From NCBI GenBank assembly GCA_905178155.1, contig CAJINV010000022.1, positions 725,044 to 789,043 of the forward strand: a DNA stretch of 64,000 nt. The letters run 5' to 3'. Shown here piece after piece: positions 29,501 to 64,000 of this stretch. The first letter of the stretch is position 1; each line of letters starts with the position of its first letter. Source of the stretch: Amoebophrya sp. A120. Taxonomy: Eukaryota; Protista; Dinoflagellata. A program made the position numbers and the translations under genes. The notes beneath the pieces were generated by a model. It saw only the letters and a program-made list of their open reading frames with translations. It had not been told where the DNA came from and did no database searches.

Positions 29501-29634
29501 AGGGGGAGTGTATCACTCTGATAGGTTTGCAATACAAATGCCCCCAAGTTCGGGGGTGGGGGCATTTTTCATTGTAGTACCCCTATCTCGTGCAGCAGCC
29601 GGACCCGAAGTATGACTTCGTCACTAAGCGCTGA
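26553..29634 (+). CDS. Multi-exon hypothetical protein, may be continuous with the upstream model
   Basis: Exon-like segments MRYFEDYPASLF.., SITDKGEISRSS.., FWTFKINGLGKSKGFFVVLKG.., ..DKKWVPVKDCEYEYMDSLY|YLVQQPDPKYDFVTKR* between introners; not all joins resolved. Confidence 0.45.
26668..26955. mobile_element. Introner family A
   Basis: TIR pair; DR CTATC/GTATC. Confidence 0.8.
27429..27750. mobile_element. Introner family B
   Basis: TIR pair; DR CAATT/CAACT. Confidence 0.82.
28733..28980. mobile_element. Introner family A, right end diverged
   Basis: TATCCACTGCAAATATGTCTGGGTCTGGAAG ... AGACATGTTTGCG. Confidence 0.7.
29278..29579. mobile_element. Introner, family B-like
   Basis: About 30-bp TIR TATTACAGTGAAAAATGCCCCC..CCCCGAA / TTCGGGGGTGGGGGCATTTTTCATTGTAGTA. 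Confidence 0.9.
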
Positions 29635-29869
29635 GAAATCGTACTCCCCCCCCATAGTGTATACAAGCCAAGCATCTCGCAAGGCCACGCATGAGGAATC
29701 AATCTAGCTGAAAGTCCCATGGCACCACTTCGATTTCAGCATTACAAATTTGATAGAGTTTCGACAAGCCATATACAAAATGCGTGTGATGAAAAGCCGA
29801 CTGAGAAACCTCATGCACATGGCAGATTTGCATGACAAACCTGGAGTGGGTACGTTTTTACAAATGATA

Positions 29870-32800
29870 AGCGTATCCGTCAACTGTCCTCTCGAAGAAA
29901 ATATCAAATGTAAAAATGTCTGGGTCTGGAAGAATACAAGATTTGCGATGCAGGTTTTCCATGATCCTTGAGGTCTGGAATGCGAAACCCAGCATGACAG
30001 ATTCATGGAGGTCTCTATCATGCCTTTCCTGCATGAGAAACTCCCTCTCAACTTGGTCAAAAGCAGACAGCTTTTGGCACCCACGCAACACAGATTTTTG
30101 CATCATTCAGACCAGCCATGCCCCGGCTCACGCCGGGTGGAGCGGCTGTTGTGGTGGGGCAGGACGATTTGCGGATCGGGCCACAGTGCCAAAGCTTTGC
30201 GCCCGGCGTGATAGGTCGAAGGAAGTACTGGCGCCGGTTTGCGCCATTTCAACCCGCTAGGCCTCCTGCGCGCTTCCCGCGCATTGTTCAGGCGCTATGC
30301 GCAGGCAGCAGTTGCAGCGAAGCTTGGGGGCGAAGCGAAGCCGCCTCGGCGTAGGTGCCTGTCGAGGCAGAACGGGGGCCGCGATGCCCTTTTGTGATCA
30401 CACGCGAGAGGGTGGCCAGAGAGGGTGGCGCGACAGGGTGGCGCGAGAGGGTGCGTGAGAGGTTGGCGCGAGAGGGCGCGAGCCTACGTGACGAAAAAGG
30501 CCCAAAAAATCGACCCTGTGCCGGGCGGATTCGGGTTTTCTTAACCGCCTCGCAGACCCTCTTTTTCACCTCTGCCGAGGGGCGCGCCTAATAGTCCGGC
30601 TATACTCGCCGGTAGAGGTCTACAGAGGTGGCCGAGAGGTGGCCCAGAGGGTGCGCGAGAGGTTCGCCCTTATTCGCGCAACCTCTCGGCACCTCTGTCC
30701 CCCTCTCGCTTACCCTCTCCCGACCCTCTCGGCCACCTCCGTCCCCCTTAGGCGCGGTTGTAGGGCGACCGGTTCGGCTGGCTATACTCGCGCCACCTCT
30801 CGGCCACCCTCCCGAATGACCTCCCGCGCCACCTCTCCACCTCTGCGGACCTCTTTTTGATCTCTTTTCACCTCTTTTTGACCTCTCGGCCACCTCTCTT
30901 CTATCCTCTGTAGACCTCTTTTTTCGCATGAATATAATAGATAGTATTTTGACATGACAAGTTCTAATCTTCCAGACCCAGACATTTTTACATTCGATAG
31001 AAAAACGATACGGACAAATTTCGCGAGCGGAATACGACGCGGCGAAAAAACACGACGGAAACGGTGCGGCGAGTCTCGACGAGTGGTTCGTGTGCGATCA
31101 TCTGTGCCCTTTATCGTAGAAAAAAGAACACCACTCCAGTACCCAGTGACAGGACCATGATTTGCCATGCTATAGTTAGGGATCACAAGAAAAAAGAGAA
31201 CATGTCGTCTGCCCAGCAGCAGACATTCTACGCTTTCCATGGCAACAAAATGTCTTGGCATTGCCGAGTTTTTTGACGACACACTTGTAGCGAAACGAAA
31301 GGCAGTTGCAGGCCTTTTCTTCTGTGATTGGGTCTACTTTTTTCTGCGATACCGTGGAAGCGACTCGAAGGCGCACGTGTGGCGGAAGTACACCGGCTCG
31401 TCTCCACCAGTTGACGGACCTTATCCTGCTGAAAAGTACAATCACACCCAAAGAAAAAAGTTTCTGTTGCCAGTATTTTCAGTTCGCTCAAAAGCAACGC
31501 TGTATTTCGGTTGACAGATACTTAGGAGAAAACAAACTCCGAAAAAGTTTGTCTTGCACGATATGCAATGCACAGGTTTAGTAGTGGTGAACATAACTGC
31601 AACCAAAGCTAATCCTTGTATTTGTGTATGAGCGGTGTGCAGCTTTTCGCTGTGATGAACCAGCTTGGCTTTACAACTACATCTGGGACAACGACGGCTA
31701 CCTTGTCCAGCCACAGAACATGCCTGGAGCAGCACCGCAGACCCTTATCAGAAGGAAAAATCCCGCCTCCCCATATCGAAAAGAAAATTTGTGATGCTGC
31801 TTTGTGACCACGAATCAGCTTTGTCTTGCGTACAAGGCGATCGGCGGCCATGTGGCGCATTATGCAGCGAGTCTGTCATGCGGTTTCGCCTATGTCAGAC
31901 TTGTTTCGCATGCTCAGCTGCTAGCCGGATGTGTACCCGGGGGGGCTTAGAATATGCTGACAAGCTCTTGCCGCAATACAGAGCTCATTGGTGTACACAA
32001 ATCCAGCATCAACGCAAATTGTCTTCCAAATATGGGGTGGGGGCTTTTTTCACTTGGATAACGCTGCAGCAAATTTTTCGGCATCCGGAAAACCCCGAGA
32101 CCGAGAGCCTGTTCTTCCTGGGAATAAATAACAAGAGGTTCGAGAAAGTTGCCCCAATGTCGACGGAACAGAAATACTATATCGACGCGATGGCGCGGGA
32201 TTATCCGGCGGCTGATTTCTACTGGATTATGCATTGCAATATGTCTGGGTCTGGGAACTTGCAATGCTGGGATGTGAATACGATTGGTGAGCTCTTTGTA
32301 ATGCACACGCACAGCCAAGTATGACGAGAAATATAATTGGGCTTTCCGCACGACAAACTGCGTTTTTGCATGACAGGCGCCAGGATCTCTTCTTGGACAC
32401 GCATCACTAACTCTGCAGTCAGGGCAGACAAGCATGACAAACGTTGCCGGTTTCCAGACCCAGACACATGTGCCCTGGATATGTCTGGTAGTGGGTCATG
32501 GAGGGTTTGGGGACTCGTTTCTGGTGGCTTTCGCCCGGAATTATCAAACTGAAAAGTACAGCACCGCCAGTTTTCATCTTTGCCGCAGTTTGTATACACC
32601 ACTAGAGCAGAAGTCCGCTTCGATGCGGCATCCATCGTCACAAATTTTTGCGCCAGTTTTTTTCCCCATCTGCAGTTGCAGAGCTCATTTTGCGTTTCGC
32701 GACAGCAAAAACGCATTTTCTGCATGCCCACCGCGGAATGCGGCCCAGGTGTTTACTTTTCTGCTTGATATCGATGCGCCGACGACGGAGTGCGCGACCG

Positions 32801-33430
32801 CGATCGCACCGATAAAAGGCGGGTCTGTTGAGTATAAGAACTTTGATGTTTTGTTCTTATTCTACCCATGTCAAGCACTGAAAAAGCAAAATTACGTGTT
32901 CGCACTTCATTGCAGGTTTTGTTGCCGCGATCTATTTTTTTTATTTCTCTGATCATGAATACATCACTACAGGTACCAGCGAGAATTTGAAGACCTGGCC
33001 CGCAAAGGATACCGTACGTGCAAAATGTCTTCGCTTATGCAAGACAAATGTGTCTGGGTCTAGAAGACTGCAACGTGTCATGCTGATGCTATGTTGCATG
33101 CACGGCCGCAAGCGCTATTCACTCTCTGCCGCGCAAAGGGCGAGTTTTTCACGTGGAATAGGTATCAAAGAGCTGTTGCACAAATCGAGAATGTGATGCA
33201 GCTTCCGGTTGCATTTCGTCTAGATCATTTTACATTTGTGTGTTGCACCAGGTGCATGACAAATCTAAGCAACCTCCCAAATCCAGACACATTTGCAGGG
33301 CATATCGGAAGATCTGGATATGGTGAAAAACCTTATCGATAACAAGGTTTGGTTTCCGATCCCGGACGCCAAGTATCAACGTGGAAGGTTCTCCCAGTCT
33401 TACAATTTCGAAGTGCGTGCCTTGCCATGA
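29870..33430 (+). CDS. Multi-exon hypothetical protein (7 introners plus one GT-AG intron), start unresolved
   Basis: Continuous frame after removals: NCPLEE|KRYGQISRAEYDAAKKH..DHLC|PGSDSKAHVWRKY..DGP|AWLYNYIWDNDGYLVQP..QT|LQQIFRHPEN..DFYW|MVVGHGGFGDSFLVAFARN|APTTEC..SV|EYQREFEDLARKGYRTCKMSS|QDLDMVKNLIDNKVWFPIPDAKYQ..VRALP*. Confidence 0.7.
29902..30999. mobile_element. Introner family A carrying an 830-bp insertion
   Basis: Family A TIRs; exact DR GAAAA. Confidence 0.9.
30112..30941 (-). mobile_element. Putative non-autonomous Helitron-like element nested in an introner
   Basis: Minus strand: A|TCTATTATATTC ... hairpin CCCGGC-GTGA-GCCGGG, GCATGG, CTGG|T; no TSD. Confidence 0.7.
31112..31351. 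mobile_element. Introner, minor family
   Basis: TATCGTAGAAAAAAG ... CTTTTTTCTGCGATA; DR CCCTT/CCGTG. Confidence 0.82.
31746..32060. mobile_element. Introner family B
   Basis: Closely similar to 63094-63408; DR ACCCT/ACGCT. Confidence 0.9.
32228..32481. mobile_element. Introner family A
   Basis: TIR pair; DR TGGAT/TGTCT. Confidence 0.82.
33036..33304. mobile_element. Introner family A
   Basis: TIR pair; DR TCGCT/TCGGA. Confidence 0.82.
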
Positions 33431-34521
33431 ACGAACGCGGCGTGGAATAAAAAAATAAAGTGTTTTCACACGACAACCACAAAAGCTATTTCGAAGTAAG
33501 ACCCAGGGATACTTTCCACGATGATACAAAATTGCAAGCCGCTGGGAGAAAGACCCGAAGCGTTTTTTTCACGGTGTCGGGAGGTGATAGCGAAAAATAG
33601 TATCATGTGAAAAAAAAGCTGCTTCAACATCATGCGCAATCGTAGAATTTTGCACGGCGTTTTGTCCTTAGCGACAAGGACAACCCACAACAGCATCGCT
33701 TTGATGCAACAAAGAGCCGGCTTTTTCATTAGTGGAAGAAGGATTGAAATTCTACTTTCTTGCAGCCATTCCACGAAACAAACAAGCTCCATGTTTGTTC
33801 AAGCATCTGCATTTGAGAAACGGAAAGACGTATCTGCCAACGGTAAACCAGTTTGTTGCACCAATGCACCCCGCATTTTCATCGTGAAGCAGATGGTTTT
33901 TTTCACTTTGATAAACCCCAAATGATCTTTCGGATGATTATGGGACTATCCCACAGAAAAGTACACTCAGGCATTATTTGGAAAAATTTGTCGGCAGCCT
34001 TTAGCTTGACCTGACAAATCATCCCCTTCCCATCAAAAAAGAGATGACGTGACGTTTCGATCACCGAAAACAGAGAAAGCGCATGACAAGTTTGTAGATA
34101 TGCGAATTCGAATATCGAAAGCCTGTACTTTTCGGTGTGATACGTGTTGCCCACCCCCAACGGCCTCACAGCAACCGTCTGCGAAAAACTTATCAAATAG
34201 AAGTGCCCATCTACTTCTGAATACAACAAGGCATTTTCTGTTTTGTGGCTTTACCATAGTCACAAAACTTCAGCAATTTTGCGTCATGTGAAAGCATACG
34301 CTCTTTGTACTGCGGATAAGCACTTACGAAAGATATCTGACAAATCTGTCGCGCCTTTCGGCCAAAAAGCGCTGCTCCCTTGTGACACTAAGCACAACTT
34401 GAACTTCTGCAGCGAGAGATTTTGACCAATTGCATGAAATAGATGTGCCTTTCTCTTTGATACTGGAGTTTTTTTGTCCGAGGGGGGGCGACAGGTGGAG
34501 GTACGAGAAGGATCTCCAAAC

Positions 34522-34791
34522 TATGCATTGCAAATATGTCTGGATCTGGAAAGGATGGGATTTGTCATACTAATTTTTTCATGCTAGTACAAGAAATACA
34601 AAAGCCTGTATTGCATGAGCATCAAATAGCGCAAACCCGAAGGGGGTATTTGTCATGCAGGATAGAATGAGCAAGCCTTGGCGAGCGGCGTGAAGACGCT
34701 AGAGCACGCATTACGGGCAACGCGGTTCATGTACAATTACGCATGACAAACTTCCCCAATATTCCAGATCCAGACCTATTTGCTATGGATA
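34522..34791. mobile_element. Introner family A
   Basis: TIR pair; DR CAAAC/CCAAC. Confidence 0.85.
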
Positions 34792-35055
34792 CCAACTACA
34801 GTGAAGCACCCACAGTAGAGGCGGATCGATCGTAACCTTCACATCAGTACCAACAGGAAAATAATACACACAGTAATTGTAGCAACAAATCTTCAACATC
34901 AACATCTTCCCTTTCAACCATCGAATCTACTTCATTTCAAGCGTCTTCTGTGCCAACATGACGAGTTGCGGAATAAGTGAACGAAAAGTAAACTTTGTAA
35001 TGCCCATCATCATCCGTTCGCGGTTCCGGGTTCCGGAGAAGCAGTAAGCCGCAAC

Positions 35056-46627: not shown

Positions 46628-49600
46628 GTGGCATCGTTTTTCATTTTGAGATATCACGTACCGCGTAGAGCACTCTCACGCGAGGAAGACGGACAACAAC
46701 GGTCCCTGTTTCGGGGTACGCGAGCCGGATCTTCGACTCCCAGAACGGGTCCCGGTTTACGGGCACGCGAGACGAGTAATTCCTCCGCCGGGAGCACGGG
46801 GTCGAGGAAGAGACCCGACGTCAACGAGCACCAGTACCAAAACCGAATAAATGCAGCGTCGTCGGTGCGGGTTCGCAATTTACAGGATCGTCTGCTGAAA
46901 GAGGCCACGGCGACTGCTGCCTCTCCACTGCTGCTCGCAGAGTTTTCGAGAAAAAGATGCGCTCTGGTGTCGCGAGTCCGAGACGAATACACGCAGCTAC
47001 GGAACTACATGCAGCAGATCCGGCACGGCGGTCAGTCGGGAGCTAAGGCTGCGGCATCCCTGAGGGATGTGACCGACTTGGAGAACCAGTGGGATGAAAA
47101 CCTGCAGCGGCTCCTCGATGTATGCTGCAGAAGAGCATGTCGATAGGAAAGCAGCTGCTCCCAAATTCGGCTTTGTCATGATTGTCATTGTGCAGCGCAG
47201 CCACGTCCTCGATAAATGGCGAAGTAGACCTCAGATATTTTGTCATGCCGCTACACGGCCTCGGCTTTTACACCCCCAGATCTTCCGTCGTCCCCTTCAA
47301 GACATGTTGTTGACATTTCATAGCACTGTATCGACGTGGAATCTGCTGGCGTACCGACCGCAGTGGCGGGAGCTCCTACTGCAGGTAAAGGTGATTGCGA
47401 AAGCAAATATGTTGCTTTAGATCTTCATATCAACTGCAAATTATGTTTCTGGGTCTAGTAGAAGATGGCAGTTTGTCATGCACATTTTCCATGCTTCATG
47501 ATGAATGACTGTGATGCATGCCCTAGCATCACAGATTTTTGAGCGCTCTCGCTTAGTTGTCGAGGCGCTCCCCGCATGACAAGTGCCTTCTTCCCGTAGC
47601 CAAGTTTAACTCCTCTTGCTCCTCATGCAATACAAATTTTTTTTAGCATCCAAATGCAGCATCACTGTGATGCCATCACAACCAGCATTCTTCTAGCCCC
47701 AGATACATTTGCGTGTGATACTTCTTATCGACAGAAGCAATTTCTGGTAAAAGTCTTTACTGAATGCGAACTGGACGCACTAATCTTTTCTTCGTGAAGA
47801 TCCCCGGCAAGATAACCCCGGATTTCTCTTGTTTACCGTGGAGAACAAAAATCCCTTTGCAGCTCCGATAAGTGCAATGAAAATTATACAGACCACTCAA
47901 GACCGAGCGGTGTGTATTTGAAAACTAGTTTTGAACGTTGTTTCTCATAGATCAAAATAAAGAAAATGAACAGGATGATAAGGACAAGGCAAGAAATCGA
48001 TCGAGCAAGAAAAGGAACGAAATACCAAGGAAAAGCAAGCAAATTCTTGCCACGATCGACAGAAAAAGGAAAAGGAAAAGAGAAGAGAAGAAAAGCAAAG
48101 AAATTAGGTCTGATTTACGCTGAGTTCGCATTACAAACTGCCTTTTCACTACTTTCAAGGAGCTGAGTCAAGGCTACGGGCACGATTAGAAATATGAAAA
48201 GACGCGAAATAGCATTAGAAACTGAGACAACTAGATTGGGGATATTGAATCTGTAATGCGTATTTGTGGAATTTGGAGGAGTTTTAGATGGTGTTCAAGT
48301 AAGACTTCGGTGTGTACGCGTCTGAAAAATTAACCTCTCCATTTCGAAACTAGATCCTACAGCGGCGATGAACGCGTCTTGACCATAGAGTCGCTCCAGG
48401 CCTTACAGGACCACTATCAAATGCAAAAATGTCTGGGTCTGGAACATTCTAAACTTGTGATGCTGTCTCTGGATTCTAAAAAAAATTGTATTGCATGATC
48501 AGCAAGAGGACTCCATGTTGTGCTACGCGGAGAGGGCATTTCTCATGCGGTAGAGGTATCACAAGGCCCTCTAAAAATCTGTGATGCTACGGCATGCATC
48601 ACAGACATGATGGCTCATGGAAAATATGCATGACAAATCTCGAAATCTTCCAGACCCAGACATTTTTGCATTTGATAACCACGTGCAGTCGACCATGCGC
48701 CAAGTTAACGCGGACATGGTGTTCAAAGGTGAGTGCTACATCATCGCCTTCGGTTTACATTTTTTGTAGGTCGTGATGATGTAATGATCGAAGCGTATGT
48801 GTGACGAGAAGAATATGATTTATCAATATGATTGGATTTGTTTTATTGGTGGATTGAAATGATATAGAAAACCACACTTATTTTCCTCTCAGGCGACGCG
48901 GTCCTGTATTTGTTATGCAAGGCAAATTGCATGAGCGGCAAGAGAATTTTATTTTTTGCTACGTGGGGTGGGCATTTCTCATGCTGGATAAGCATAAAGA
49001 CGCCGTCAGAAAAGCTGTGATGCTGCGGCGTCTTATATCGCAGACATCATCGGTCATGNNNNNNNNNNNNNNNNNNNNNNNNNNNNNNNNNNNNNNNNNN
49101 NNNNNNNNNNNNNNNNNNNNNNNNNNNNNNNNNNNNNNNNNNNNNNNNNNNNNNNNNNNNNNNNNNNNNNNNNNNNNNNNNNNNNNNNNNNNNNNNNNNN
49201 NNNNNNNNNNNNNNNNNNNNNNNNNNNNNNNNNNNNNNNNNNNNNNNNNNNNNNNNNNNNNNNNNNNNNNNNNNNNNNNNNNNNNNNNNNNNNNNNNNNN
49301 NNNNNNNNNNNNNNNNNNNNNNNNNNNNNNNNNNNNNNNNNNNNNNNNNNNNNNNNNNNNNNNNNNNNNNNNNNNNNNNNNNNNNNNNNNNNNNNNNNNN
49401 NNNNNNNNNNNNNNNNNNNNNNNNNNNNNNNNNNNNNNNNNNNNNNNNNNNNNNNNNNNNNNNNNNNNNNNNNNNNNNNNNNNNNNNNNNNNNNNNNNNN
49501 NNNNNNNNNNNNNNNNNNNNNNNNNNNNNNNNNNNNNNNNNNNNNNNNNNNNNNNNNNNNNNNNNNNNNNNNNNNNNNNNNNNNNNNNNNNNNNNNNNNN

Positions 49601-52600
49601 NNNNNNNNNNNNNNNNNNNNNNNNNNNNNNNNNNNNNNNNNNNNNNNNNNNNNNNNNNNNNNNNNNNNNNNNNNNNNNNNNNNNNNNNNNNNNNNNNNNN
49701 NNNNNNNNNNNNNNNNNNNNNNNNNNNNNNNNNNNNNNNNNNNNNNNNNNNNNNNNNNNNNNNNNNNNNNNNNNNNNNNNNNNNNNNNNNNNNNNNNNNN
49801 NNNNNNNNCCTGAGGGATGTGACCGACTTGGAGAACCAGTGGGATGAAAACCTGCAGCGGCTCCTCGATGTATGCTGCAGAAGAGCATGTCGATAGGAAA
49901 GCAGCTGCTCCCAAATTCGGCTTTGTCATGATTGTCATTGTGCAGCGCAGCCACGTCCTCGATAAATGGCGAAGTAGACCTCAGATATTTTGTCATGCCG
50001 CTACACGGCCTCGGCTTTTACACCCCCAGATCTTCCGTCGTCCCCTTCAAGACATGTTGTTGACATTTCATAGCACTGTATCGACGTGGAATCTGCTGGC
50101 GTACCGACCGCAGTGGCGGGAGCTCCTACTGCAGGTAAAGGTGATTGCGAAAGCAAATATGTTGCTTTAGATCTTCATATCAACTGCAAATTATGTTTCT
50201 GGGTCTAGTAGAAGATGGCAGTTTGTCATGCACATTTTCCATGCTTCATGATGAATGACTGTGATGCATGCCCTAGCATCACAGATTTTTGAGCGCTCTC
50301 GCTTAGTTGTCGAGGCGCTCCCCGCATGACAAGTGCCTTCTTCCCGTAGCCAAGTTTAACTCCTCTTGCTCCTCATGCAATACAAATTTTTTTTAGCATC
50401 CAAATGCAGCATCACTGTGATGCCATCACAACCAGCATTCTTCTAGCCCCAGATACATTTGCGTGTGATACTTCTTATCGACAGAAGCAATTTCTGGTAA
50501 AAGTCTTTACTGAATGCGAACTGGACGCACTAATCTTTTCTTCGTGAAGATCCCCGGCAAGATAACCCCGGATTTCTCTTGTTTACCGTGGAGAACAAAA
50601 ATCCCTTTGCAGCTCCGATAAGTGCAATGAAAATTATACAGACCACTCAAGACCGAGCGGTGTGTATTTGAAAACTAGTTTTGAACGTTGTTTCTCATAG
50701 ATCAAAATAAAGAAAATGAACAGGATGATAAGGACAAGGCAAGAAATCGATCGAGCAAGAAAAGGAACGAAATACCAAGGAAAAGCAAGCAAATTCTTGC
50801 CACGATCGACAGAAAAAGGAAAAGGAAAAGAGAAGAGAAGAAAAGCAAAGAAATTAGGTCTGATTTACGCTGAGTTCGCATTACAAACTGCCTTTTCACT
50901 ACTTTCAAGGAGCTGAGTCAAGGCTACGGGCACGATTAGAAATATGAAAAGACGCGAAATAGCATTAGAAACTGAGACAACTAGATTGGGGATATTGAAT
51001 CTGTAATGCGTATTTGTGGAATTTGGAGGAGTTTTAGATGGTGTTCAAGTAAGACTTCGGTGTGTACGCGTCTGAAAAATTAACCTCTCCATTTCGAAAC
51101 TAGATCCTACAGCGGCGATGAACGCGTCTTGACCATAGAGTCGCTCCAGGCCTTACAGGACCACTATCAAATGCAAAAATGTCTGGGTCTGGAACATTCT
51201 AAACTTGTGATGCTGTCTCTGGATTCTAAAAAAAATTGTATTGCATGATCAGCAAGAGGACTCCATGTTGTGCTACGCGGAGAGGGCATTTCTCATGCGG
51301 TAGAGGTATCACAAGGCCCTCTAAAAATCTGTGATGCTACGGCATGCATCACAGACATGATGGCTCATGGAAAATATGCATGACAAATCTCGAAATCTTC
51401 CAGACCCAGACATTTTTGCATTTGATAACCACGTGCAGTCGACCATGCGCCAAGTTAACGCGGACATGGTGTTCAAAGGTGAGTGCTACATCATCGCCTT
51501 CGGTTTACATTTTTTGTAGGTCGTGATGATGTAATGATCGAAGCGTATGTGTGACGAGAAGAATATGATTTATCAATATGATTGGATTTGTTTTATTGGT
51601 GGATTGAAATGATATAGAAAACCACACTTATTTTCCTCTCAGGCGACGCGGTCCTGTATTTGTTATGCAAGGCAAATTGCATGAGCGGCAAGAGAATTTT
51701 ATTTTTTGCTACGTGGGGTGGGCATTTCTCATGCTGGATAAGCATAAAGACGCCGTCAGAAAAGCTGTGATGCTGCGGCGTCTTATATCGCAGACATCAT
51801 CGGTCATGCTTGATGTGGATGCATGACAAAACACCCAGACCCAGACATAATTGCAACGCATGAACTTTGATGCTGACACATCATTTGCTGTGGATGCAAT
51901 TCCTTGCACGACGAGCTTGCACTCGTAAAGGGCGAGCTGCACTACCTCGGGGAGGCCAAGAAGATATGGGAAGAGCTCTCGTATCAAAAGGAAAAGTCCC
52001 CTCTCCCCATGTCAAAACGGAAATCTGTTATGCGGGATTTGTGTAAACAAATCAAATCTGTCATGCAGTAGAGGACTGCACGCACTTCGCAAGCCTAGGC
52101 ACGGGCCGCTTGGTGTAGGCGTCTAGCATGGTAAACGTCTGCAATGTAGGCCTCACAGCGTCACAAATCACCTGTGTATTAACGCGGCGGATTCTCTGCA
52201 TTTGCCTTCCTGCAAGACAGACAGGATTTGTGGTGACAAATCTGCAAAGCAAATTCTCAGAAGGATGCGCTTTCAACATGGGGAGGGGGGATTTTTCGTT
52301 GCGATATCTTGCAGCGGAAGGTCAGACGGCTATCGTGCGCAAAGTCGTCCCTATCAACAGGAGGTCGCACATTGAACAGTGATTCTGCTGTCAAAACCGC
52401 TTCGGTGCTACAACCGTTGATAAGGAAGGTGAATTTTACACAGGATAACGCAATAGTCGCGATTTAGACAAGGAGGTGGAGGACACCGATCCCGCGACGA
52501 CGGCTGAGGCCGCCATATCAAGACGGATCAAGGAACTGGAAGTCGAAAGAGACGTACTCGCGGTATCACCTGCTGGAGGGCTGTCATGGTCACAAGTTTT

Positions 52601-53393
52601 TGGTCAACGAAGAGTATGTACAGAAAGACTGTGCGACCAGCACTTAGCAAGTGCATCATGCAGAATTACAATTTGAATCGTAGGACCGATAAGAAAAAGA
52701 GAAAAAAATGACATGAGCAAGCCGTTTTTTTATGTTATACGCGGAGACGTTGGCGAAATACTTCGTCCTGCGCACGGCGAAGCCCGGCCGACCACCGCAG
52801 CCGAGTGGGAGCAAGGCGTCGACGCACGCTATCGCATGTTGATCGGACTGAATTCAAAGGCAGACGCGGCGTCTCCACTCAGTGCGAACGAGCAGGCTTT
52901 GCGCAAGAAGTAGACCGCTGCCGCGGATTTTTCTCGTGGGCGCGTGATTGCGTCACAAGTCAAGAATTTAAGTATAGCGCAGGAGGTTCCTGCAGCTTTT
53001 CACGCGACTCGTCTATTGCTGCAGTGCGTAGACGCCGTTGCCTTTGAACTCAAATAGTTTTTCGTCCCATACGCCCATCCTCCCCAGAGGACGCGCCGTC
53101 TTCGCCGGAGCTAGTGGCGTACCAAAAAGAAAAGCCCTCCCTTGAGAACTCAAAGCGAGCGCGTTGCTGCTTTCCTGTTTAGCAAACAGGAAACAAGCTG
53201 CTCCCTCACAGCGTGCATCTCGTCTTCCGCCTGCTACTTCGCCCTGGAGCAGGACAAAAAGCAGCTACGTCCACTTTCAGAACGCGGAAAGCAAGGGATG
53301 GAGGTTTTTCTTTCTGATATGATCGAAAATGAGGACACGATTTTTGGACTAAGCAAGATTTATGAGCAAAAAAAAGCGTCGCGCCACAGTTGA
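46628..53393 (+). CDS. Probable multi-exon hypothetical protein spanning the gap and duplication
   Basis: Exon-like helical segments (..RVRDEYTQLRNYMQQIR..; LTIESLQALQDH|VQSTMRQVNADMVFK; DELALVKGELHYLGEAKKIWEELS; AAISRRIKELEVERDVLA); connectivity not established. Confidence 0.35.
47428..47720. mobile_element. Introner family A (duplicate at 50178-50470)
   Basis: TIR pair; DR CTTCA/CTTCT. Confidence 0.83.
48415..48677. mobile_element. Introner family A (duplicate at 51165-51427)
   Basis: Perfect TIR; exact DR ACCAC. Confidence 0.95.
49059..49808. other. Assembly gap, 750 N
   Basis: Run of N. Confidence 1.
49809..51808 (+). repeat. Exact 2000-bp duplication, copy 2
   Basis: Matches 47059-49058. 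Confidence 0.95.
51982..52306. mobile_element. Introner family B
   Basis: TIR pair; DR TCTCG/TCTTG. Confidence 0.87.
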
Positions 53394-53698
53394 ATAAATG
53401 TGGCCTTTTGTTGCCTTGCAGCATGTCTGTCTCCTAGCATGACAAAAACATGAATCCTGTATTTCTGACACAGTACATTTGAGACGCAGAAAAGTTGCAG
53501 TGGCACGGCGCTTCTGCTCTCGAATAACCAAAAGGACTACATTACCACCGACTCGCTGGCACACGGTAAGCCTCTATCACTCTGAATGCGTATGATGTTA
53601 GTACTCAGTAACAACAGAATGTGTTCATTTATACTTTTCTGATAAGGTACTCATGCTATTCTTGTGGTACTTTTTTTAAATTGTTCACACTGCAGCGG

Positions 53699-53951
53699 TA
53701 TGCGTTGCAAATATGTCTGGGTCTGGAAAGATGGAGCGGGTAATGCACGTTCGACACTTTTCTGAAATCTGTATTGCATGACACGCGAAAGCCTCAGCCT
53801 CGTTTGTCGTGCAGAAACGCAGTTTCTGATGCGGGCTGCGTATGAAAGAGCATTTTGGAAACTTGTCATGTGCTTTGCTGCATGCGGGAGTGCTTCCATC
53901 ATCTACAGTCCAGCATCACAAGTTTCCAGACCTACATATTTGCACTGGATA
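53699..53951. mobile_element. Introner family A
   Basis: TIR pair; DR diverged. Confidence 0.8.
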
Positions 53952-54272
53952 AGAACGAATGAAGCTCCTGCGGTTATGACGCCGAAACGCAACCGCCCAC
54001 TATCCTAATTAAGTACGTGCGCGCCAGCGCGGAATTCTTTTTGTAAATACGACAGGGCGGCCCGTAATTTGGGCTGCTACAATGTAAACGTAGCAATGGG
54101 ATGAGATGATGCTGCACTTGCATTGAAGAAATTTAAATGCGGCAGAAAGTTTGATTTGCATTGCAACTATTGCGCTGGAGGGCCATATGGATCACATTTT
54201 TGTTGCAGCGCTCCCTTTTGAAGTTTTCAGGGCGTTCAGCATAGAGTGGATGAGGTTTTCGGCGTGATACGT

Positions 54273-54431
54273 TATGCTGTGCAAAAGTATCGTACCCGTA
54301 CTGGTTGCAAAACTGCATGACAGGTCTCGCTTTTTTAGGTAACATAGCACGATTTTGTCTAGTTTTGGAAAAAAGGAGGCATGCGATCGGGACTGTGTAC
54401 GAGTACGTGTACGACGCTTTTGCAGTGCATA
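54273..54431. mobile_element. Short introner, family K
   Basis: TATGCTGTGCAAAAGTATCGTA ... TACGACGCTTTTGCAGTGCATA; related to 61472-61620. Confidence 0.8.
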
Positions 54432-54513
54432 GACATGGACAGGATGCGACTCCTTCAAGGGGAGTTGAATAGCGCCGACACTAGGTACCGAGACCTAGAA
54501 ACCGCGCACGCCG

Positions 54514-54765
54514 TATCAGCTGCAAATATGTAATCTGGATCTGGAATGATACCACCGTGTAAATCTTGTTTCGTATGATCACTGTATATTCTGTGATGCA
54601 TACTTTTTGCGCACGAGACATGCCCGCTTGTGTTCTTGCCAAAAAAAGCAATTTCCCATGCGGAGAATGCAACACAGGATTCTATGAAAAAAGCCCCTTG
54701 CTCTGCTGCGTGCTGCACGATTTAGCATGACAACTTTCCAGACCCAAACATGTTTGCAATGGATA
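54514..54765. mobile_element. Introner family A
   Basis: TIR pair. Confidence 0.78.
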
Positions 54766-55316
54766 CGTAAGTGAGAAGGCGGACATGAAAAGGAGGTTCG
54801 ACGAGGAAAGGCAGGAGTTGCAACAAAAAATAGAACTATTCCACCGAAAAAATGTACCCGCACCGGGAAAAAAATATTTATTGTATTGCGGATTTCCCTC
54901 CTGTTTGCTCTGCTGCTCAGTATCAGAGAGTTACTCGCCACATCTCAGATCGCTTCACCGCAGTACACGCTGCGTGCCTCGTGGACACTACCAACATTTG
55001 ACCACGTGGCTTAGCGTTCTTGTGGACCCTCTGAACACGACCGGAATGATAGGTTGAGTACGTCTGGATGATGGTGATGATGATGATAGTTGGTGATATC
55101 ACAAAGTGAAAGTAACTGCCTCAGCTGCGGTCTCCGCATGAAAGAGTGGTCACGACGAGCAGGGACACCAATTTACTCGCAACACAAATTCACCTTGTTT
55201 ACGGTGCGGGTGTACTTTTCTGTGGGATACCATGGACTCAACTCGATGAACGAGCTGCTGGCTGAACAGCTGCGGAGCACGGGTTCCGGGAACTCGATGC
55301 ACTCGGGCGTGTTCGA

Positions 55317-55608
55317 TATCACTATGTAAAAACGTCGTAACCCCAGAGTTGTCATGCAGATTTGTAGTTACAGGGAGATTTGTGATGCGCACCCCCATGA
55401 GAGGAATGTGTATATTATCCAAACGTGTTTTGGAATATGTAATGCTGTAAGCAGGAGAAGAAGATGGATTTGTGATGCTGCTGTGCATGTATTTGCTAAA
55501 AAATGCAATACAGAACGGAACTCGTCATGCGTGGCTCCCAAAACTTCTGGGTTTGTGTTGCAGAGTTCCCAACTTGACTTAGGGGTAGGTTCGTTTTTGC
55601 GCAGAATA
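55317..55608. mobile_element. Introner family G
   Basis: Exact DR TTCGA; AAAAACG/CGTTTTT inverted arms. Confidence 0.82.
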
Positions 55609-56070
55609 TTCGACGAGATCTGTTCATCTTCCTCCCCGAGTACTTTATGTTTTCTTTATAGTTTGTTACGATGTAGTGAAGTTCGATGCCACTCTACCTG
55701 TAGTTTGTGCAACATTTTTTCCTTAACAAAACAGTTTTCCAAAATCTTTTCCTTTAACAAAACAGTTTTTCACTCTATATGCAGGAAGATACCCAGTTCC
55801 ACGCCGCCCTCAACCTCGAAGGATTCAGGTTGTATGTTCAGCAGGATGATACGTACACAAATGAAGAAATGAATATTGATTCTGATACGTCCGAGTTCCC
55901 CAATTGTTTGCTTATAGTATTTTTAACCAACGCGGTAGGCAGAAGCATACCCCGTCTCTTGCTTCTAGGATACAGTCAATCTGAATTCTGCTGCATGAGG
56001 GTCGTGGAAGTTTCTCTGATTCATAACGGCCACCGCCCGGGCCAAGTCCCACGGTGGACACCGTCAGCGA

Positions 56071-56332
56071 TATCAAATGCAAAAGTGTCTGGGTCTGGGA
56101 GGATTCGAATTTGTGATGCGAAATCTATGTCATGAGAAAATGTGTCATGCATGGCTAGCAAAAGGCCGCGCCTCTTGTTTCCGAGAGAGGGGATTTGTCA
56201 TGCGGATTAGGCATTTGGATACCTGCTCAAAATCTGTGGTGCTAGAGCTTGCATGCCAGACGATCTGGCTCATGCAAAAACTGCATGACAGATCTCGCAT
56301 TCTTCCAGACCCAGACATATTTGCATTTGATA
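56071..56332. mobile_element. Introner family A
   Basis: TIR pair; exact DR AGCGA. Confidence 0.94.
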
Positions 56333-58469
56333 AGCGAAGCGGACAAAGAACAAGAAGCGGACGGTCCAGTTCCGATGGGTCCGATGCGAATCAACGTATG
56401 AAAGTGAATACCCTTTTTCCCCATCCCGTCTAGTCGTTCGTGTTTGCATCCTAGCAAGCTAATCTTCTGCTCCCAGTAGAAGTAGTGTAAAATTTGCATT
56501 GCTGAAAAAGAGAAAGGGTGGTTTTTTCATCGTCATTATTTGCAGCGCCACCGCCAGAACCCATGAACATGCAAGGCGTGCCTGCTGCGTCACCAATCCG
56601 GAACAAGGAACCGCCCAAGAACTTATCGATGCGAAACCCTTCCTGCTCAACCATCCCCCGAGAGGTGTTCGTGTATGTGTTTTTTCCGTGCAGCCAGCTA
56701 ATCATTTTGCATGCCTCTAGATTTTAGCTTTACCTAAGCAGAGCCAGAAGGAGGCCCAAAATATGTTCTGTTTCTAATCTATCGCGTGCTTCACCATAAT
56801 TTCTCCCTTGTGGCACCTGGAAGGTTTTTGCATCGGTATTCTGTGACCATCAAAACGAAGTTATCAAAATGAAAATCCTCCGTATTCGAACGATGATTTT
56901 GTTCAGAATGCATCTGAGAAAGAGATGATGACCAACAGCCCAATTGTCCTGCATGTTCTGCTCTCTTGAAGTGGAATGCGGTGGTTTTGATTTTGATATG
57001 CCAGCCACGAAGAACACCAACGCTGCAAATATCAAGTGAAAATAGGTCTGGGTCTGGACGGAGACGAGAGTGAGATTTCTCATGCATCTTTTGCGTGACC
57101 AAGAACGACAGGTATACGGGCCAGAGTATCACAGCTGTTGTAAAGCATCACGATCTCCACTCACATTCCGGTCATATACGCATGACAAATTTGAACATCT
57201 TCTATGGCCGAAAAAAAAATACGCAACTTTTATTTTTGCGGCCCTGGCATGACAGATTTTTTTGCGAATTACATCGCGCATGACAAATTTCCAGTTTCGT
57301 GCCCCCCCAGGCGCAGGCGTATTTGCAGTTCATAGCAGTAAGGAGTTAATAACCAAATTCTGTAGTTCTGCAAAACGAAAATATTTTTTTTTGTTCGACA
57401 AATTTACAACCTACATTGCAAGATAAGAAGAAATAGCATCACGAGATTTAGACTTTTACAAGGTGTGATTGAAAATAGGTAGATTTTGCCGACAGAACTC
57501 GAGCTCTACAGCTTGACCATCGTTAGCTTATCGAAATTGCATGATGAACAATTAAAGCATATGAACAGAAATCAAAGTAGAAAAAGAAAATCGCCGATGC
57601 AAGCAATATCAATACTGCATCTCCATCAAAAATTTTGCCTCAAGTAGAAGTAGACACGACGAAGACTGCGCTGAGTATAAATTGTTCAAGTAGAATTTGG
57701 CTGTGACAGCTCGGAATGTTCTTTGCGCGGAGCAACAATAATGTCCCAGTATTTTGGACTACTCGCCTGTGCCTGCGTGTTCAAGCTCTTGACAGAGAAA
57801 CTCTTCGCTGTCCTGGCTCTTTTGCGATCGCAGCGTTTGTGCATTGAATGGATCCTCGAAGCACCTTTTTTTTTTTCTGCTATTAGTATTATCGATGTAT
57901 CTATGTTCTGGTGCGCAAAATAACACTATACTCTCAATTCGCTTTTTCACAACCAGTGACAATGTAGCCTTCGGTCAAATGCGTTTAGGCGTCCATAATG
58001 AGAAAATGCGTCTTCCTCGAGTTCTTTGTTGGTCTCTCACTCTGTAGTATGAGTGCACTGAAGGACCACCTGCCAGCAACCTATTGAGGCCTCACAGGAA
58101 AACGATTTTTGTTGCCGGAGCTCTTGTGCGAAAGTCGCAAGAAGTGGCACTGCCGTCTCCTTCTTCGGCCTGATTGGGACTCGAGCTGTGGCAGGCGGGA
58201 AACAAAGGATTCAAGATAATGGGCGCGTACTAGTCCTACTCCTAGCACTTCTTCGACGCGGTTGGAACTACATCCGGGCAGCTGCGCTTGATTCATTCTG
58301 CGCTGGTGGAGCGCCGCTCAAAACAACGAGGAAACGCGGCAGAGCAGAAGCGGCACTGGCTACAGGTACCATGCGGAATTAGAGGAGCCCGGCCTGTCCA
58401 GCACCCTCGGCAGCGTGATCCAGAGTTTTCCTGATTTGGGCGGGAACCTCCACTTTGTGCCACTGCCGG

Positions 58470-58701
58470 TATCAAGTACAAATATGTCTGGGTGGTGTGG
58501 AAGACTGCAAGATTTGTCATGCACCTTGCGGACCACACACATGATCTCGAATGCACGCAAAAGCCCCAGGAGAAGTCTGCCTTTGCCCTAGCAAGGATTG
58601 AGGAACTTTTTGCGGTCATGCAACGCAGATTTTTTTGCGTTTGAGATTTTGCATGACGAGTTATATCCTTCCAGACCCAGATGGCATATTTGCAAAGCAT
58701 A
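58470..58701. mobile_element. Introner family A
   Basis: TIR pair; DR GCCGG/GCTGG. Confidence 0.85.
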
Positions 58702-58760
58702 GCTGGGGTGGGCTGACGATGTCGGCAGCAACAGGGAGGCGACGAAAAACTGCAGAGTCG

Positions 58761-59031
58761 TATGCATTCCAAATATTTCTGGGTCTGGAAGGATGCAACT
58801 TGTGATGCTGTATCTCGATTCCATCAAAATCGGTATTGCATGACCAGCAAGAGGAGCTCCGTTTGTGCTGCGCGGAGAGGGCATTTCTCATGCGGAATAG
58901 GCGACATAAATAGGCCCTCTAAAAACCTGTGATGCTAGGCCATGCATTACGGGTACCAAGGGCCAGGGTCAAGCAAAATATGCATGACAAACCTGGCAAT
59001 CCTCCAGGCCTAGGCATATTTGCACCCGATA
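58761..59031. mobile_element. Introner family A
   Basis: TIR pair; DR AGTCG/GGTCG. Confidence 0.85.
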
Positions 59032-60585
59032 GGTCGCTTCTAAGGACGACTCCTAGCCGGCCTCTACGAGCGATGGCGAAGCGACTCGTGGTTCGGCAAA
59101 AGCAAAGTCCTTATTGGAGCAACCTATCCATAGTTGCGCTCCAGCTGTTGGAGCACCATGGAAGCCGTCCATGAAGATGACGGTGCGGAGATTCAAAGAG
59201 CACCTGTTGCGCTGGAGATTGACTTGGGCGCCGCTTTTTGGGATGCAGAAAAGCGTCTGTTGCAACGTGTTTGTTCGTGATGTAATGGAAAAGAATAAAA
59301 CTAGAACAACTACCTACGACGTGCTTGGTTCTTTCTATTCACGACCTAATTTTTTTACTGTTTCATTGCATTCGTGTTTAATTGCGAACGTGTCTGGGAG
59401 TTTATTTACAGCCTATTGCTGTTGCTGTTCCATTGCATTCGTGTTTTTTCCTGTATGCTTTCGTTAGTAGAATCGTGCTGGGTTCTACGGCGGCACTCTG
59501 TTGATTTTGCGATGTTTGCTGTATCAAATTCGTTTTATCATTCACGACGCTACTGCACGTTTTTTACACGATGATGCCAGCACCTTTCTACAAAGTAAAC
59601 ACGGTCTTACGCTAGAAAAATGCAAAAATCACCAAAAAATCACTGTGTTCGAATAATCGTCTTTGTGCCGGTATGTTTTCTTTGTCGAAATCGACTGCCA
59701 AGGATCCATCCCACGAATTCTTTCCTGCATGCTATGATGGCAAAATTGGTGCGCAGTATTTGCTTTGTTGTTAACTCGTCAAACCGTTAGAAACCGCTGG
59801 TGCGTAGCAGCCAAAATCTACTGAAGAAATCACATGTGTAGCTGTGGAAAAAGTTTGAATGCAAGAGGACAACGCCTTCCTCCTTTCCATACCTATTCCA
59901 AGGGGAGGCAATTTGAGAAGTCCGGAGAGGCAATTTGAGAAGTCCGACTCGTCTAGTTAAGGAGAATTAGCACCCTGTGTTCGAAAATAACAGAAAGCCA
60001 CTTGTGCTGTGCCTGTGTAAACGGAAGACAATTTAGAAATCACCAGTCTGAAACGCAGCGCTGAAGATGAAAACAACAAAAAAGATGATGTGGGAAGCTT
60101 CGTGTGCGTTGCGTACCTGCTTTATACTGGCCTCCTTGGAGAGAATAGAGCGCGGATGCTTATCACCGGTATCTCGCGGTCATTCTCTCAGCTGCAGTTC
60201 TACAGAAACGATATCAATGGAGCACATTAGAAATTTGCGCTCGCCATTTTTTATGCAGCTCGGTTTGAAAAGCTACTCTTTTAAAAACAATCTTCGCTTT
60301 TGCTTTTACGAGCGCGCATTGAATATTCCGGAGTAGAATACTCGATCGCTAGCCTGCAGGCGGGCTGCGATTCATGACGGCGGCAGGCGGCACAAACTGT
60401 GAAGGCTTATTGTCAGCGTGCCGCTGTTATTGTCGCAGGAGTTTTGCATACCCAAAATCACTAAACATGCCACCAACCACTCTAGCCCACCGTAGTGCCT
60501 TGTTACTCGTTGTAGTCGGAGCAAAAAACTGCAAAGTCGTAGGTTCAATGTCAAATTCAGTTTTTGTTTGAAAACAAAAGAAAAA

Positions 60586-63500
60586 ATGGCGGATGACCTT
60601 GCAGACCTGCTGGACACCTTTGAAGACGACGGGGAGGAGGAAGACTACGTGCCACCCGTATCAGAGCGGAATTTTGGGTCATCGCGAGGTGGATTTGTCA
60701 TGCGTTTTTCAATATATGAAATGACCAGATTGTGATTGCGCATTTTTGCCGAAGGGGCATGACAAAGTCCATTCTGTGGCTCAGAATTCTCTGTTCCATA
60801 ACCGCCGGACGAACCCCCGGATGAAGTTCCACCACTTGCAGCTGGACGAACCAGTATCTTCGAAGGAGACAGTGCACTTGTTCCCGGACAGAAAGAACAA
60901 GCTTCTATGCCAGAAGTAGATCTGCATCACAGATCGAACCAACTCGGCCCTCCGAGTCAACATGTGGCCGCTCTGGCACCTGCGGATCCGGATCCAGCCG
61001 CCCACTACAAGCCACCACAGTTACAACCTGATCATACCGCTGTTCTTTCACCAGGGCAGAAGGACGAAATTCCCCTGCCACCTCCCCCTGGCCAGCCCTC
61101 GCCGCCAGATGAGCGACCTGATGAGGAAGAAATTCTACATGGGGACTCAACGCAAGCAGCTGTGGGAAGTGGTGGATCATCCGCTGGAAGAACCACGGCA
61201 GATGAACAAACGGCTCCAGCACCACAAGTCCCGAACTTCTCGGACAGCACACTGCGTACAACGGAAACACCTACAACTGGAGGAATTTTTCCCATTGCGG
61301 CAACCGAAGGCGCGCAGAGCGCGATATCCGCTGCGGCTGTGACAGCAGGACAGGTCGCGACTACGGCGGTTGCGAAAAGCGATGGAGTGCAGGAGCCCGT
61401 GGCGGGAACAACAACGGGCAGCAGTACTACTACTGCAGCTGCTGCGACAAGCATTGCTGCGGGTCCCGCAGTATGAATTGCAAAAGTATCGTATTCGTAT
61501 AAATGCATGACAAATTTTCTCAGCATGAGATGAAATGAAATTTGTAATGCTGATTTACCTTAAGAAAAAGATTTGTATATGCATGATTGCAATACGCGCA
61601 CGATCCTTTTGCACAGGATACGCAGCGATGGGTGCCAGTTCCTCCTCGTCGAGCTCCAGCTCGACGGGTAATGACCCAGCAGGGAGCAATTCTACGACGG
61701 CTTCGTCCGCCACGAATGGCACTATGAACAACAAAAAATCCTACGCCTGGGAGACCCGGAATCAGTTCAACAAATTGAAGAACCGCGACAACCTGTCGTC
61801 CCAACTCTGCCGGATCCGGGAAAAGCAGGCGCAGAAACGACAGGAGGAAGCGCAGAATCGGGTGCGGCAGTTTGATATCAAGTGCGGAAGTGTCTGGGTC
61901 TGGAAGATTCCGGGACGTGTGATGCATATTTTCTATGATCCGTCACGCATGTAATGCATGATCTAGCATCACAGATTTTTAGAGGCCTTTCTGATGCCTA
62001 TTCCGCATGAGACACGCCCTCTCCGCGTAACACAAACTGGACTCGTGATGCTGGTCACGCAATACAGATTTTTTTGGAATCCAAAGACAGCATGACAGGT
62101 TGCAATCTTCCAGACCCAGACATTTTTGCAATCCATATTCGAGAAAAATTCGGGGTTTCACCTAACAGACAGGTGTTTGTCGCAAGACAAGTTTGACGCC
62201 TGCATGCGGAACAAGGTCAAGGTATACCAAGGAGTAGGTGTTGAATATTTTGCGGGTTTTTTGTGATGAAATTCATCTTGTTCACGCATGGCAAACTGGT
62301 AAAAGCGTACTACAGGATGTGACTCTGCATGACATCAAATTTTTGCCAAACAATTTTCCCTACTTTATCCAGGTCGAACTCCGCGACATAAAACGTCTCG
62401 TGACAAGCGGCACAGCCCAAAACGCAGAGTTTAAAGACAAGGACGTTGTGCTCATTGCGATCGGCATCGGGTATTTGCCATCTGTCACCTGTGGCAATAA
62501 CATGGTCTGTTCCGAGTGGAAAATTTGCGATCTGCCAACACCCGCACACCCGCAGGCGTTCGTGTGCACGCTGAGGTTGCACGACCAGGCGTATATCGGT
62601 ATTATACAGTTCTGCATGACAAATTGCTGCGTTTGAGGTACTAACTTGGGGTTCTGCATGACAAACTATGTTGCGTCTCCTGCGTCCGAAACTGCTTGCG
62701 GCGACGGTGCAAAGGTTTTTGATGTGGTGCAGTCGGGTATGCATGACAAACTATGTTGCCCTTCCAGTTTCCGCATGACAAAAAGATCTTTCTAATGCAA
62801 TTCTCGCAACTCAAACTCCAGGTTGGACGTCTAACCGCGAAGCTTCCGCGGAGCTGAAGAAAGGATATGCAATGCAAAAGGAAGCAGGGCGGTACTACGT
62901 GGAAATTGCATGACAAGATTTCTGAGCACGAAAATCCAATTTGTGATGCTGAGTAGCGTACAAGGTTATGGATCTGTCATGCCAAATTGCAATTTATCAC
63001 GAGAAGTGCGATCCTATCTGCAGTGGATAAGCGATCCGTGTTCGCGATTTTGAACCCAGTCGTCACCTGCCAGCAATCCTCGCACCGCTACTTTACTCTG
63101 AGGAAAAATCCCCCTTCTCTCTATTGAAAAGGAAATTTGTGATGCTGATTTGTGACCACCAATCAGCTTTGTCTTGCGTAAAAGGCAAACGGCACCCATG
63201 TGGCGCATGGAGCAGCGAGTCTGTCATGCGTTTTCGCCTATGTCAGACTTGTTTTTCATGCTCAGCTGCTAGCCGGACGATGCGTACCCAAATGGGGTTA
63301 GAATATGCCGACAAGCTCCTGCTGCAATACAAAGCTCATTCGTGTACACAAATCCAGCATCACAAATTGTCTTTTGAATATAGGGTGGGAGCTTTTTTCA
63401 CTTTGATATACTTCGTGCGGGTTCGACACGCGGCGCAAGTGGTTAAACTGGGGGAATGCGAGGACGTGGGCTACTGTAGTGCGAAGGTATCAAATGCAAA

Positions 63501-64000
63501 AATGTCTGGGTCTGGAAGGTTGGAACTTGTGATGCTAACTTTGGACTCTGACAAAATTTGCATTGCGTAACCAGCAAGAGGAGTGCAGTTTGTGCTACAC
63601 GGACACGGCATTTGTCATGCGGAGTAGGCACCATCAGGAACCCCTTTAAAAATCTGTGATGCTAGGTCGTGCATTGCAGACATCCTAGGTCATGCAAAAT
63701 ATCATGACAAACCCGGCAACATTCCAGACCCAGGCATTTTTGCATTTGATAGAAGAGCGGAAAGAACAAAAATGAAACCTGTGGCCAGCCGATCAACACG
63801 CGGAATTGCCCGAGTGGGATGTGCTTTTTCCACCAGGAGCTATCAAATATAAAAATGTCTGGGTCTGGAAGATTCTGACACTTGTCATGCACGTTTTGCA
63901 TGAGCCATGATGTCTGTGATGCGTACCCTAGCAATACAGATTTTCTGAGGGCTTCTTGATGCCTATTCCGCATGACAAATGCCTTCTCAGCGTAGCAAAA
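60586..64000 (+). CDS. MCM10: Minichromosome maintenance protein 10 (DNA replication factor), 3' partial
   Basis: Predicted exons 60586-60657, 60805-61470, 61625-61874, 62142-62221, 62373-62598, 62822-62864, 63034-63092, 63413-63486, 63756-63839 give one open frame: MADDLADLLDTF.., FEKNSGFHLTDRCLSQ.., DVVLIAIG..SEWKICDL..LRLHDQAYIGW..KKGSVFAILNP, VVKLGECEDVGYCSAK..ETCGQPINTRNCPSGMCFFH. These match the MCM10 EKFSG motif, OB-fold and CCCH zinc finger (recognised by eye). Confidence 0.88.
60659..60800. mobile_element. Short introner in MCM10
   Basis: TATCAGAGCGGAATT ... AATTCTCTGTTCCATA; DR ACCCG/ACCGC; in-frame removal. Confidence 0.78.
61472..61620. mobile_element. Short introner family K in MCM10
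   Basis: Exact DR CGCAG; removal joins GPA|AMGASSS. Confidence 0.9.
61876..62137. mobile_element. Introner family A in MCM10
   Basis: TIR pair; DR TTTGA/TTCGA. Confidence 0.92.
62222..62372 (+). other. GT-AG intron of MCM10
   Basis: AAG|GTATAC..TTATCCAG|GTC; in frame. Confidence 0.75.
62599..62821 (+). other. GT-AG intron of MCM10 containing family C-derived sequence
   Basis: G|GTATTA..CTCCAG|GT; in frame (AYIGW). Confidence 0.78.
62866..63029. mobile_element. Short introner in MCM10
   Basis: TATGCAATGCA ... TGCAGTGGATA; DR AAGGA/AGCGA. Confidence 0.85.
63094..63408. mobile_element. Introner family B in MCM10
   Basis: Exact DR TACTT. Confidence 0.92.
63488..63751. mobile_element. Introner family A within the MCM10 zinc finger
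   Basis: TIR pair; DR GAAGG/GAAGA. Confidence 0.93.
63841..64000. mobile_element. Introner family A, cut by the window edge
   Basis: Left TIR TATCAAATATAAAAATGTCTGGGTCTGGAAG. Confidence 0.85.

Follow-up and report, generated by a model that had tools for sequence, protein, structure and literature searches.

In two genes and one further transcript of Amoebophrya sp. A120, all on the + strand and seen in assembled contigs of one RNA sample, inverted-repeat elements are absent from the RNA and have been cut out at a fixed register. Wherever the cut can be pinned, it falls one base before the TAY start of the element and four bases after its ATA or ATT end. We lean toward the explanation that elements which duplicate 5 bp of their target and carry inverted repeats are removed from RNA at this register, likely by a relaxed spliceosome; that machinery is wholly our inference. 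The elements and their splicing have already been published (Farhat et al. 2021, PMC7789003, in the part accessible to us), and the fixed register is the new part. We found no fixed register for Amoebophrya in the freely accessible literature searched or in the accessible text, legends, and table of PMC7789003. Should it extend genome-wide, the register would probably amount to a second, previously undescribed code for splicing, N-TAY…ATW-NNNN, in which a machine counts from transposon ends.

The gene that provided the first register lies in the last few kilobases of the analyzed stretch of DNA (64,000 nt, here called the window). Excising six elements and two GT-AG introns (62222-62372 and 62599-62821) yields a stop-free protein of 518 aa with an OB-fold at about aa 329-470 and a CCCH zinc finger at about aa 487-516. 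The initial annotation had proposed this protein from excision of the elements and overlooked the two introns; the six elements alone leave 11 stops, the first at residue 371, and keeping any single one of the eight introduces a premature stop. Two homologues were found, P0005 from Amoebophrya sp. A25 (E 7e-97, 178/383 identical) and P0001 (E 3e-91), and the alignment to P0005 has no frame break at E3, C1, C2, E4, E5, or E6. P0005 matches MCM10_OB (E 8.5e-6, 26 bits versus a cut-off of 27) followed by zf-primase (E 1.2e-5, 25.4 bits versus a cut-off of 28.8), each just below the curated Pfam cut-off, and the reconstruction aligns across both domains. Because this ortholog matches both domains in order, and also a solved MCM10 domain (PDB 7y01_A, E 0.0033), the assignment of the window gene as MCM10, first made from sequence alone, is indirect but well supported. 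The three exons of the OB/zinc-finger region, each scanned alone, matched no Pfam family; the sole match among the five single exons scanned was a spurious SR-25. P0001 had no PDB match and gave the MCM10 OB-fold at 0.88 in an atlas comparison, which we treat as a lead only. Its gene model looks mis-joined, with an N-terminal part whose relatives are of ankyrin type, one of them named Amoebophrya sp. A120, and a truncated MCM10 that ends before the zinc finger. MCM10 is essential in other eukaryotes.

Table 1. Features of the MCM10 gene and of the upstream gene, in window coordinates
Feature	Position	Strand	Description
Upstream gene used to test the register	53076..57717	+	14 elements and 2 GT-AG introns; open frame after splicing
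2-nt exon	53696..53697	+	between GT-AG intron 53566-53695 and element intron 53698-53955
Nested pair	53975..54431		element X (53975-54269) with element Y (54273-54431) inserted in its 4-nt 3' spacer
MCM10 gene, 5' part	60586..63839	+	9 exons, 518 codons up to the window edge; named from its ortholog
E1 element	60659..60800		spliced intron 60658-60804, 147 nt, GT..CG; single possible cut; joint in 4/4 RNA-type runs
E2 element	61472..61620		154 nt removed; perfect 5-nt repeat; GT..CA in the rule's register; RNA joint
E3 element	61876..62137		267 nt removed; AT..CG; from RNA contig piece coordinates
C1 canonical GT-AG intron	62222..62372	+	151 nt; zero X3 depth in bin 62232-62358
C2 canonical GT-AG intron	62599..62821	+	223 nt; 1402-nt RNA contig consistent with C2 removed
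E4 element	62866..63029		169 nt removed; AT..CG; no predicted terminal stem; splicing shown indirectly
E5 element	63094..63408		starts TAC; 320 nt removed; TT..CT; second family; RNA joint
E6 element	63488..63751		269 nt removed; GT..AG in the rule's register; splits the zinc finger; RNA joint
E7 element, 5' part	63841..64000		E6 family, opposite orientation; truncated by the window edge

Six complete elements and a seventh at the window edge interrupt MCM10, as initially annotated, and each removed length is exactly that of the element plus 5 nt (Table 1). They come from several families: E3, E6, and E7 fall in one cluster that holds 34 of 81 window elements, E5 belongs to a second family, and E1 has no relative in the window. 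E3 and E6 lie in opposite orientations and match at 77% over 258 nt. The inverted repeats at the element ends, 8-20 nt or longer, are strong in E2, E3, E5, and E6, moderate in E1, and weak in E4. The TAT..ATA ends originally described hold in general (12 of 13 element ends start with TAT), with E5 departing from them, and AAA stands at positions 11-13 in 9 of 13 ends; window-wide, the frequency of A at these repeat positions is 0.90-0.97. C2 carries four same-strand copies of an 8-nt motif internal to the elements, and C1 carries one copy and a short terminal stem. This motif has 156 matches in 20 kb of elements versus 58 in 43 kb outside, and C1 and C2 may be decayed elements turned GT-AG introns.

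Each element was thought to leave with one copy of a 5-bp direct repeat. The 5-nt duplication is real: in a scan of 77 window elements, whose selection partly used the repeat, 64% of letters matched at k=5 versus 21-30% at k=2-4 and 6-9. In an independent set whose selection ignored the repeat (128 loci of another assembly; 300 elements, 236 of them orientable), the match was 0.88-0.94 at each of the five positions. What did not hold is a whole copy every time, as the repeat is perfect in two of the six MCM10 elements (E2 and E5) and imperfect in four, and at E1 the RNA keeps four letters of the left copy joined to one of the right. Most junctions were expected not to be GT-AG, and five of six are not; E6 is GT..AG in the rule's register and at cut +4 in the contig alignment too.

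We confirmed element-free transcripts in contigs assembled from four RNA-type runs of one sample (X3-X6), judged to be RNA from their spliced structure. In all four, contigs skip 147, 154, 320, and 269 nt at E1, E2, E5, and E6, and exit the window at 63840, the start of E7, into a further exon. Removal is thus direct for these four elements and indirect for E3, E4, and E7; that of E3, C1, and C2 is consistent with the RNA contig coordinates when compared with the predicted map. The E4 joint is not among the 15 joints listed. E4 appears to be partly spliced and partly retained, because RNA contigs are interrupted at each of its borders, and X3, X5, and X6 show a contig that still includes it (62837-63062, no mismatch). 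Raw RNA reads with the same species label (X9 and X10) did not cover the exons at 90% likeness and were uninformative on the locus. In X9, 134 reads match mainly the first 50 nt of E6 (63488-63538) at 90-95%, and no exon. A different strain under the same species label thus seems to carry an E6-related family, whereas introner families have been described as strain-specific.

The register could be read from E1 because its imperfect repeat allows a single cut. We wrote it down as a rule before the other nine pinned junctions, all in the upstream gene, were examined (in an alignment over 53000-64000). TAY stands at +2 to +4 and ATW at -7 to -5 in 10 of 10 single-register junctions among the joints listed (nine ATA and one ATT), giving the consensus N-TAY…ATW-NNNN, with a joint chance for both motifs of about 8e-4 per junction. 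This count stands for at least 10 junctions, and 4 of the 10 were resolved by hand from the letters between contig pieces. None of the 10 is GT-AG, which bears out the earlier proposal of precise removal outside standard GT-AG signals. The other eight element skips seen in RNA are compatible with the register, one of them only in two steps.

Two observations separate the register from features that it might have followed. Three of the ten pinned junctions have 0/5 repeat matches, so the repeat is not a splicing signal. U3 (53699-53951) and U12 (57030-57334), which belong to one family but are inserted in opposite orientations in this + strand gene, show the same cut, so its polarity is that of the transcript and not of the element. 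These junctions show the register to be independent of direct-repeat identity and element orientation. In the accessible part of PMC7789003, splice sites are variable relative to the hairpin and the border is given as unknown (Fig. 3 legend), unlike the -1/+4 found here wherever the cut is pinnable. A perfect 5-nt repeat lets the cut slide over six positions, and this may explain the published "unknown" border. The legend of Fig. S23 in that paper gives 1-5 nt, and its logos and histograms may already hint at the register.

In the upstream gene, the rule keeps the frame across exons of 2, 11, 16, and 18 nt, and removing element Y and then element X by the rule produces the observed 464-nt skip at the nested pair. 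An element at the stop codon of this gene (57030-57334) is retained in a low-depth X4 contig (57011-57247). A further transcript (57905-59893) has two elements spliced out and is 1476 nt long, exactly the predicted length. It has no ORF above 136 codons and is possibly non-coding, and thus the rule does not merely reflect selection for frame.

With a relaxed spliceosome, which we hold to be somewhat favored, the TA of the element would act as donor positions +2/+3, with N-UA replacing G-UA. The 3' arm ATW, brought close by the terminal hairpin, would set the acceptor by a count of 4 nt rather than by AG scanning, and would possibly supply the branch A. From the register itself, whatever the machinery, it follows that each cut lies between letters 4 and 5 of a copy of the target duplication, so that a fresh insertion at any target restores the mRNA exactly, with the intron-side copy then free to decay. 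Consistent with such a donor, all four canonical introns of the two genes start with GTA, and the elements share TA at +2/+3. In Table S4 of PMC7789003, as far as that source was available, 9/9 predominant A120 non-canonical pairs start with NT and 9/9 A25 pairs start with TT, the A25 repeats beginning TTA. The same source reports nearly all spliceosomal proteins in Amoebophrya and no U1 snRNA. Terminal pairing is not predicted for six of 19 elements, yet the register holds in all six (in five from RNA, in E4 indirectly), and at 56623-56844 the cut tracks the ATT motif, 2 nt past the best stem. Against the spliceosome stand the arbitrary 3' dinucleotides, targets with no AG|G preference, and the intron at 56396-56541, which starts with GT yet skips a canonical pyrimidine-CAG acceptor 4 nt downstream. 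A lean of position +1 toward G is not significant (7 versus 2 in the window and 7 versus 2 in oriented loci, each p 0.18; 12 versus 4 in the unoriented control). In addition, snRNAs would have no access to TAT and ATA while these are paired in a stem.

A separate nuclease-ligase system outside the spliceosome, counting 1 and 4 nt with the terminal hairpin's base as its reference, as suggested for the nonconventional introns of Euglena, is a possible alternative that we consider rather doubtful. The bypassed AG at 56396-56541 would suit it, as would the splicing of both element orientations. There is also the tested Euglena precedent of a paired motif with fixed spacers, N3-CDG…CH'G-N5-6 (PMC12501133, available in part). 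Position +3 pairs with -6 at a probability above 0.5 in 13/19 elements versus 0/4 canonical introns, and E4, the only stemless MCM10 element, is partly retained, which, as one case, favors a role for the hairpin. However, predicted terminal pairing is slight in the elements U2, U9, U10, E1, E4, and E5, the cut of U10 lies 6 nt beyond its best stem, and the conserved TA at +2/+3 equals the canonical donor. Nor is there a sense-strand bias toward G-U: G-U and A-C mismatches are equal in the window (13 versus 12 and 60 versus 50) and in the independent set (143 versus 166). The power of this test is low, because young copies inherit their mismatches and the strand call was clearly correct for about 6 of 8 calibration chunks. 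Folding z scores are -7.4 for E6 and -0.8 for E4, and for E1 they depend on the setting (-3.2 alone, -1.3 with flanks). The hairpin guidance first suggested for splicing therefore fits the 13 elements with paired termini and not the six without, and the absence of G-U excess over A-C speaks against it.

Removal at the RNA level, common to both of these readings, is very probably correct. The initial annotation had also allowed for excision from DNA before transcription, by programmed elimination or somatic excision, and this is now highly improbable. The element ends and 5-bp duplications do resemble those of DNA transposons, and the DNA-type run (X1) and RNA-type runs come from different samples, with rare variants dropped from contigs. 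However, one X1 contig runs unbroken from 60200 to 61500 across E1, other X1 contigs bridge element-exon borders at flank depth, and X1 contig depth is 43-51 over exons, E1, and intergenic DNA alike. The element-free contigs also lack the GT-AG introns, and X3-X6 have zero depth in an intergenic bin (59973-60339). These contigs therefore represent spliced RNA, and DNA excision is not supported. The mismatch-free contig retaining E4 in RNA-type runs and the asymmetric cut, identical for both element orientations, likewise argue against it. Least probable of all is that the junctions are reverse-transcriptase template-switch artifacts at direct repeats beside hairpins: strong hairpins flanked by short repeats are a classic setting for template switching and the RNA data are all cDNA-derived contigs, but the ten pinned junctions have no sliding homology at the cut (three have no repeat match at all), retention of any one element or intron gives premature stops, and the protein read across the joints runs colinearly with the A25 ortholog.

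The elements correspond to the introners described genome-wide in A120 with RNA-seq support (PMC7789003, accessible part). Both are non-canonical introns of about 240 nt in many families, with terminal repeats of TAT, seven variable letters, and AAA, and with direct repeats of 3-5 nt. The inverted repeats, the TAT-N7-AAA ends, the direct repeats, the non-GT-AG removal from RNA, and the families were all found here, and the link to Amoebophrya introners drawn at the outset stands. These introners are confined to part of the genus, according to the available portion of PMC12005148.

Other introns of transposon-like origin resemble these elements to different degrees, each compared here through the accessible parts of the sources. 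The nonconventional introns of Euglena (PMC12501133) likewise have a paired terminal motif, fixed spacers to both splice sites, and free dinucleotides, coexist with GT-AG introns, and have a proposed MITE-like origin. Their pattern differs, being N3-CDG…CH'G-N5-6 followed by a purine, whereas ours is N1-TAY…ATW-N4 with no exon preference seen; moreover, +2/+3 equal the canonical donor here, and the lineages are unrelated. Introns of Fritillaria borealis (PMC11282704, PMC13326754) are also transposon-derived, with inverted repeats, target duplications, and mostly non-GT-AG ends, and their splicing is believed to involve an altered U2 spliceosome. They have preferred ends (AG-AC and AG-AT) and a conserved U1, in contrast to the nearly free ends here. 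Micromonas and Aureococcus introners (PMC11282704, PMC7789003) are non-autonomous inverted-repeat elements whose removal with one duplication also restores the mRNA. In those, the element provides one canonical site and the duplication the other, while our elements show no AG|G target preference.

Target sites are near random in the 236 elements of the independent set, with no AG|G preference and GT-AG in 4 of 236. Based on the 5-nt duplication and near-random targets, which fit a 5-bp staggered cut, we infer that the elements originated as non-autonomous DNA transposons; A120 introners have been assigned to several transposon classes (PMC12130899, in the part available). No transposase was found among the long family members in the window and the 128 loci. 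There are four of these, a fifth row being the window's assembly duplicate. One is a 1098-bp member of the E6 family (29902-30999) with a perfect 5-nt repeat, near-perfect ends, and no transposase-like ORF seen. Another, at L032 476-2934, carries an insert of 2.2 kb close to the left end and has one ORF of 415 codons, the only long real ORF among the long members; neither Pfam nor the atlas matched this ORF. Twenty window ORFs scanned against Pfam showed repeat-driven matches only, and Rfam gave nothing in the window.

The window holds about 80 elements in its 64 kb, and the region 27400-34800 is rich in elements with poor repeats. Summed DNA depth over the elements is very high. Junction-spanning frames suggest that most window genes are on the + strand. 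One pair of elements occurs twice with its flanking repeats unchanged, at 47428-48677 and 50178-51427, 2750 nt apart with a 750-N gap (49059-49808) in between, and is probably an assembly duplicate.

If the register is as described, any insertion, in any exon and in either orientation, would be silent at the mRNA level, with nested copies spliced in order and exons as short as 2 nt left between introns. This would explain the spread of the elements, as any insertion would be repaired exactly, and would allow correct gene models. It would also provide a second, independent spacer-count splicing code beside that of Euglena. A fixed register would make the splicing of most Amoebophrya introns testable, by defining a precise substrate in which motifs, stem, and the spacers of 1 and 4 nt are separable and two candidate branch adenosines are named.
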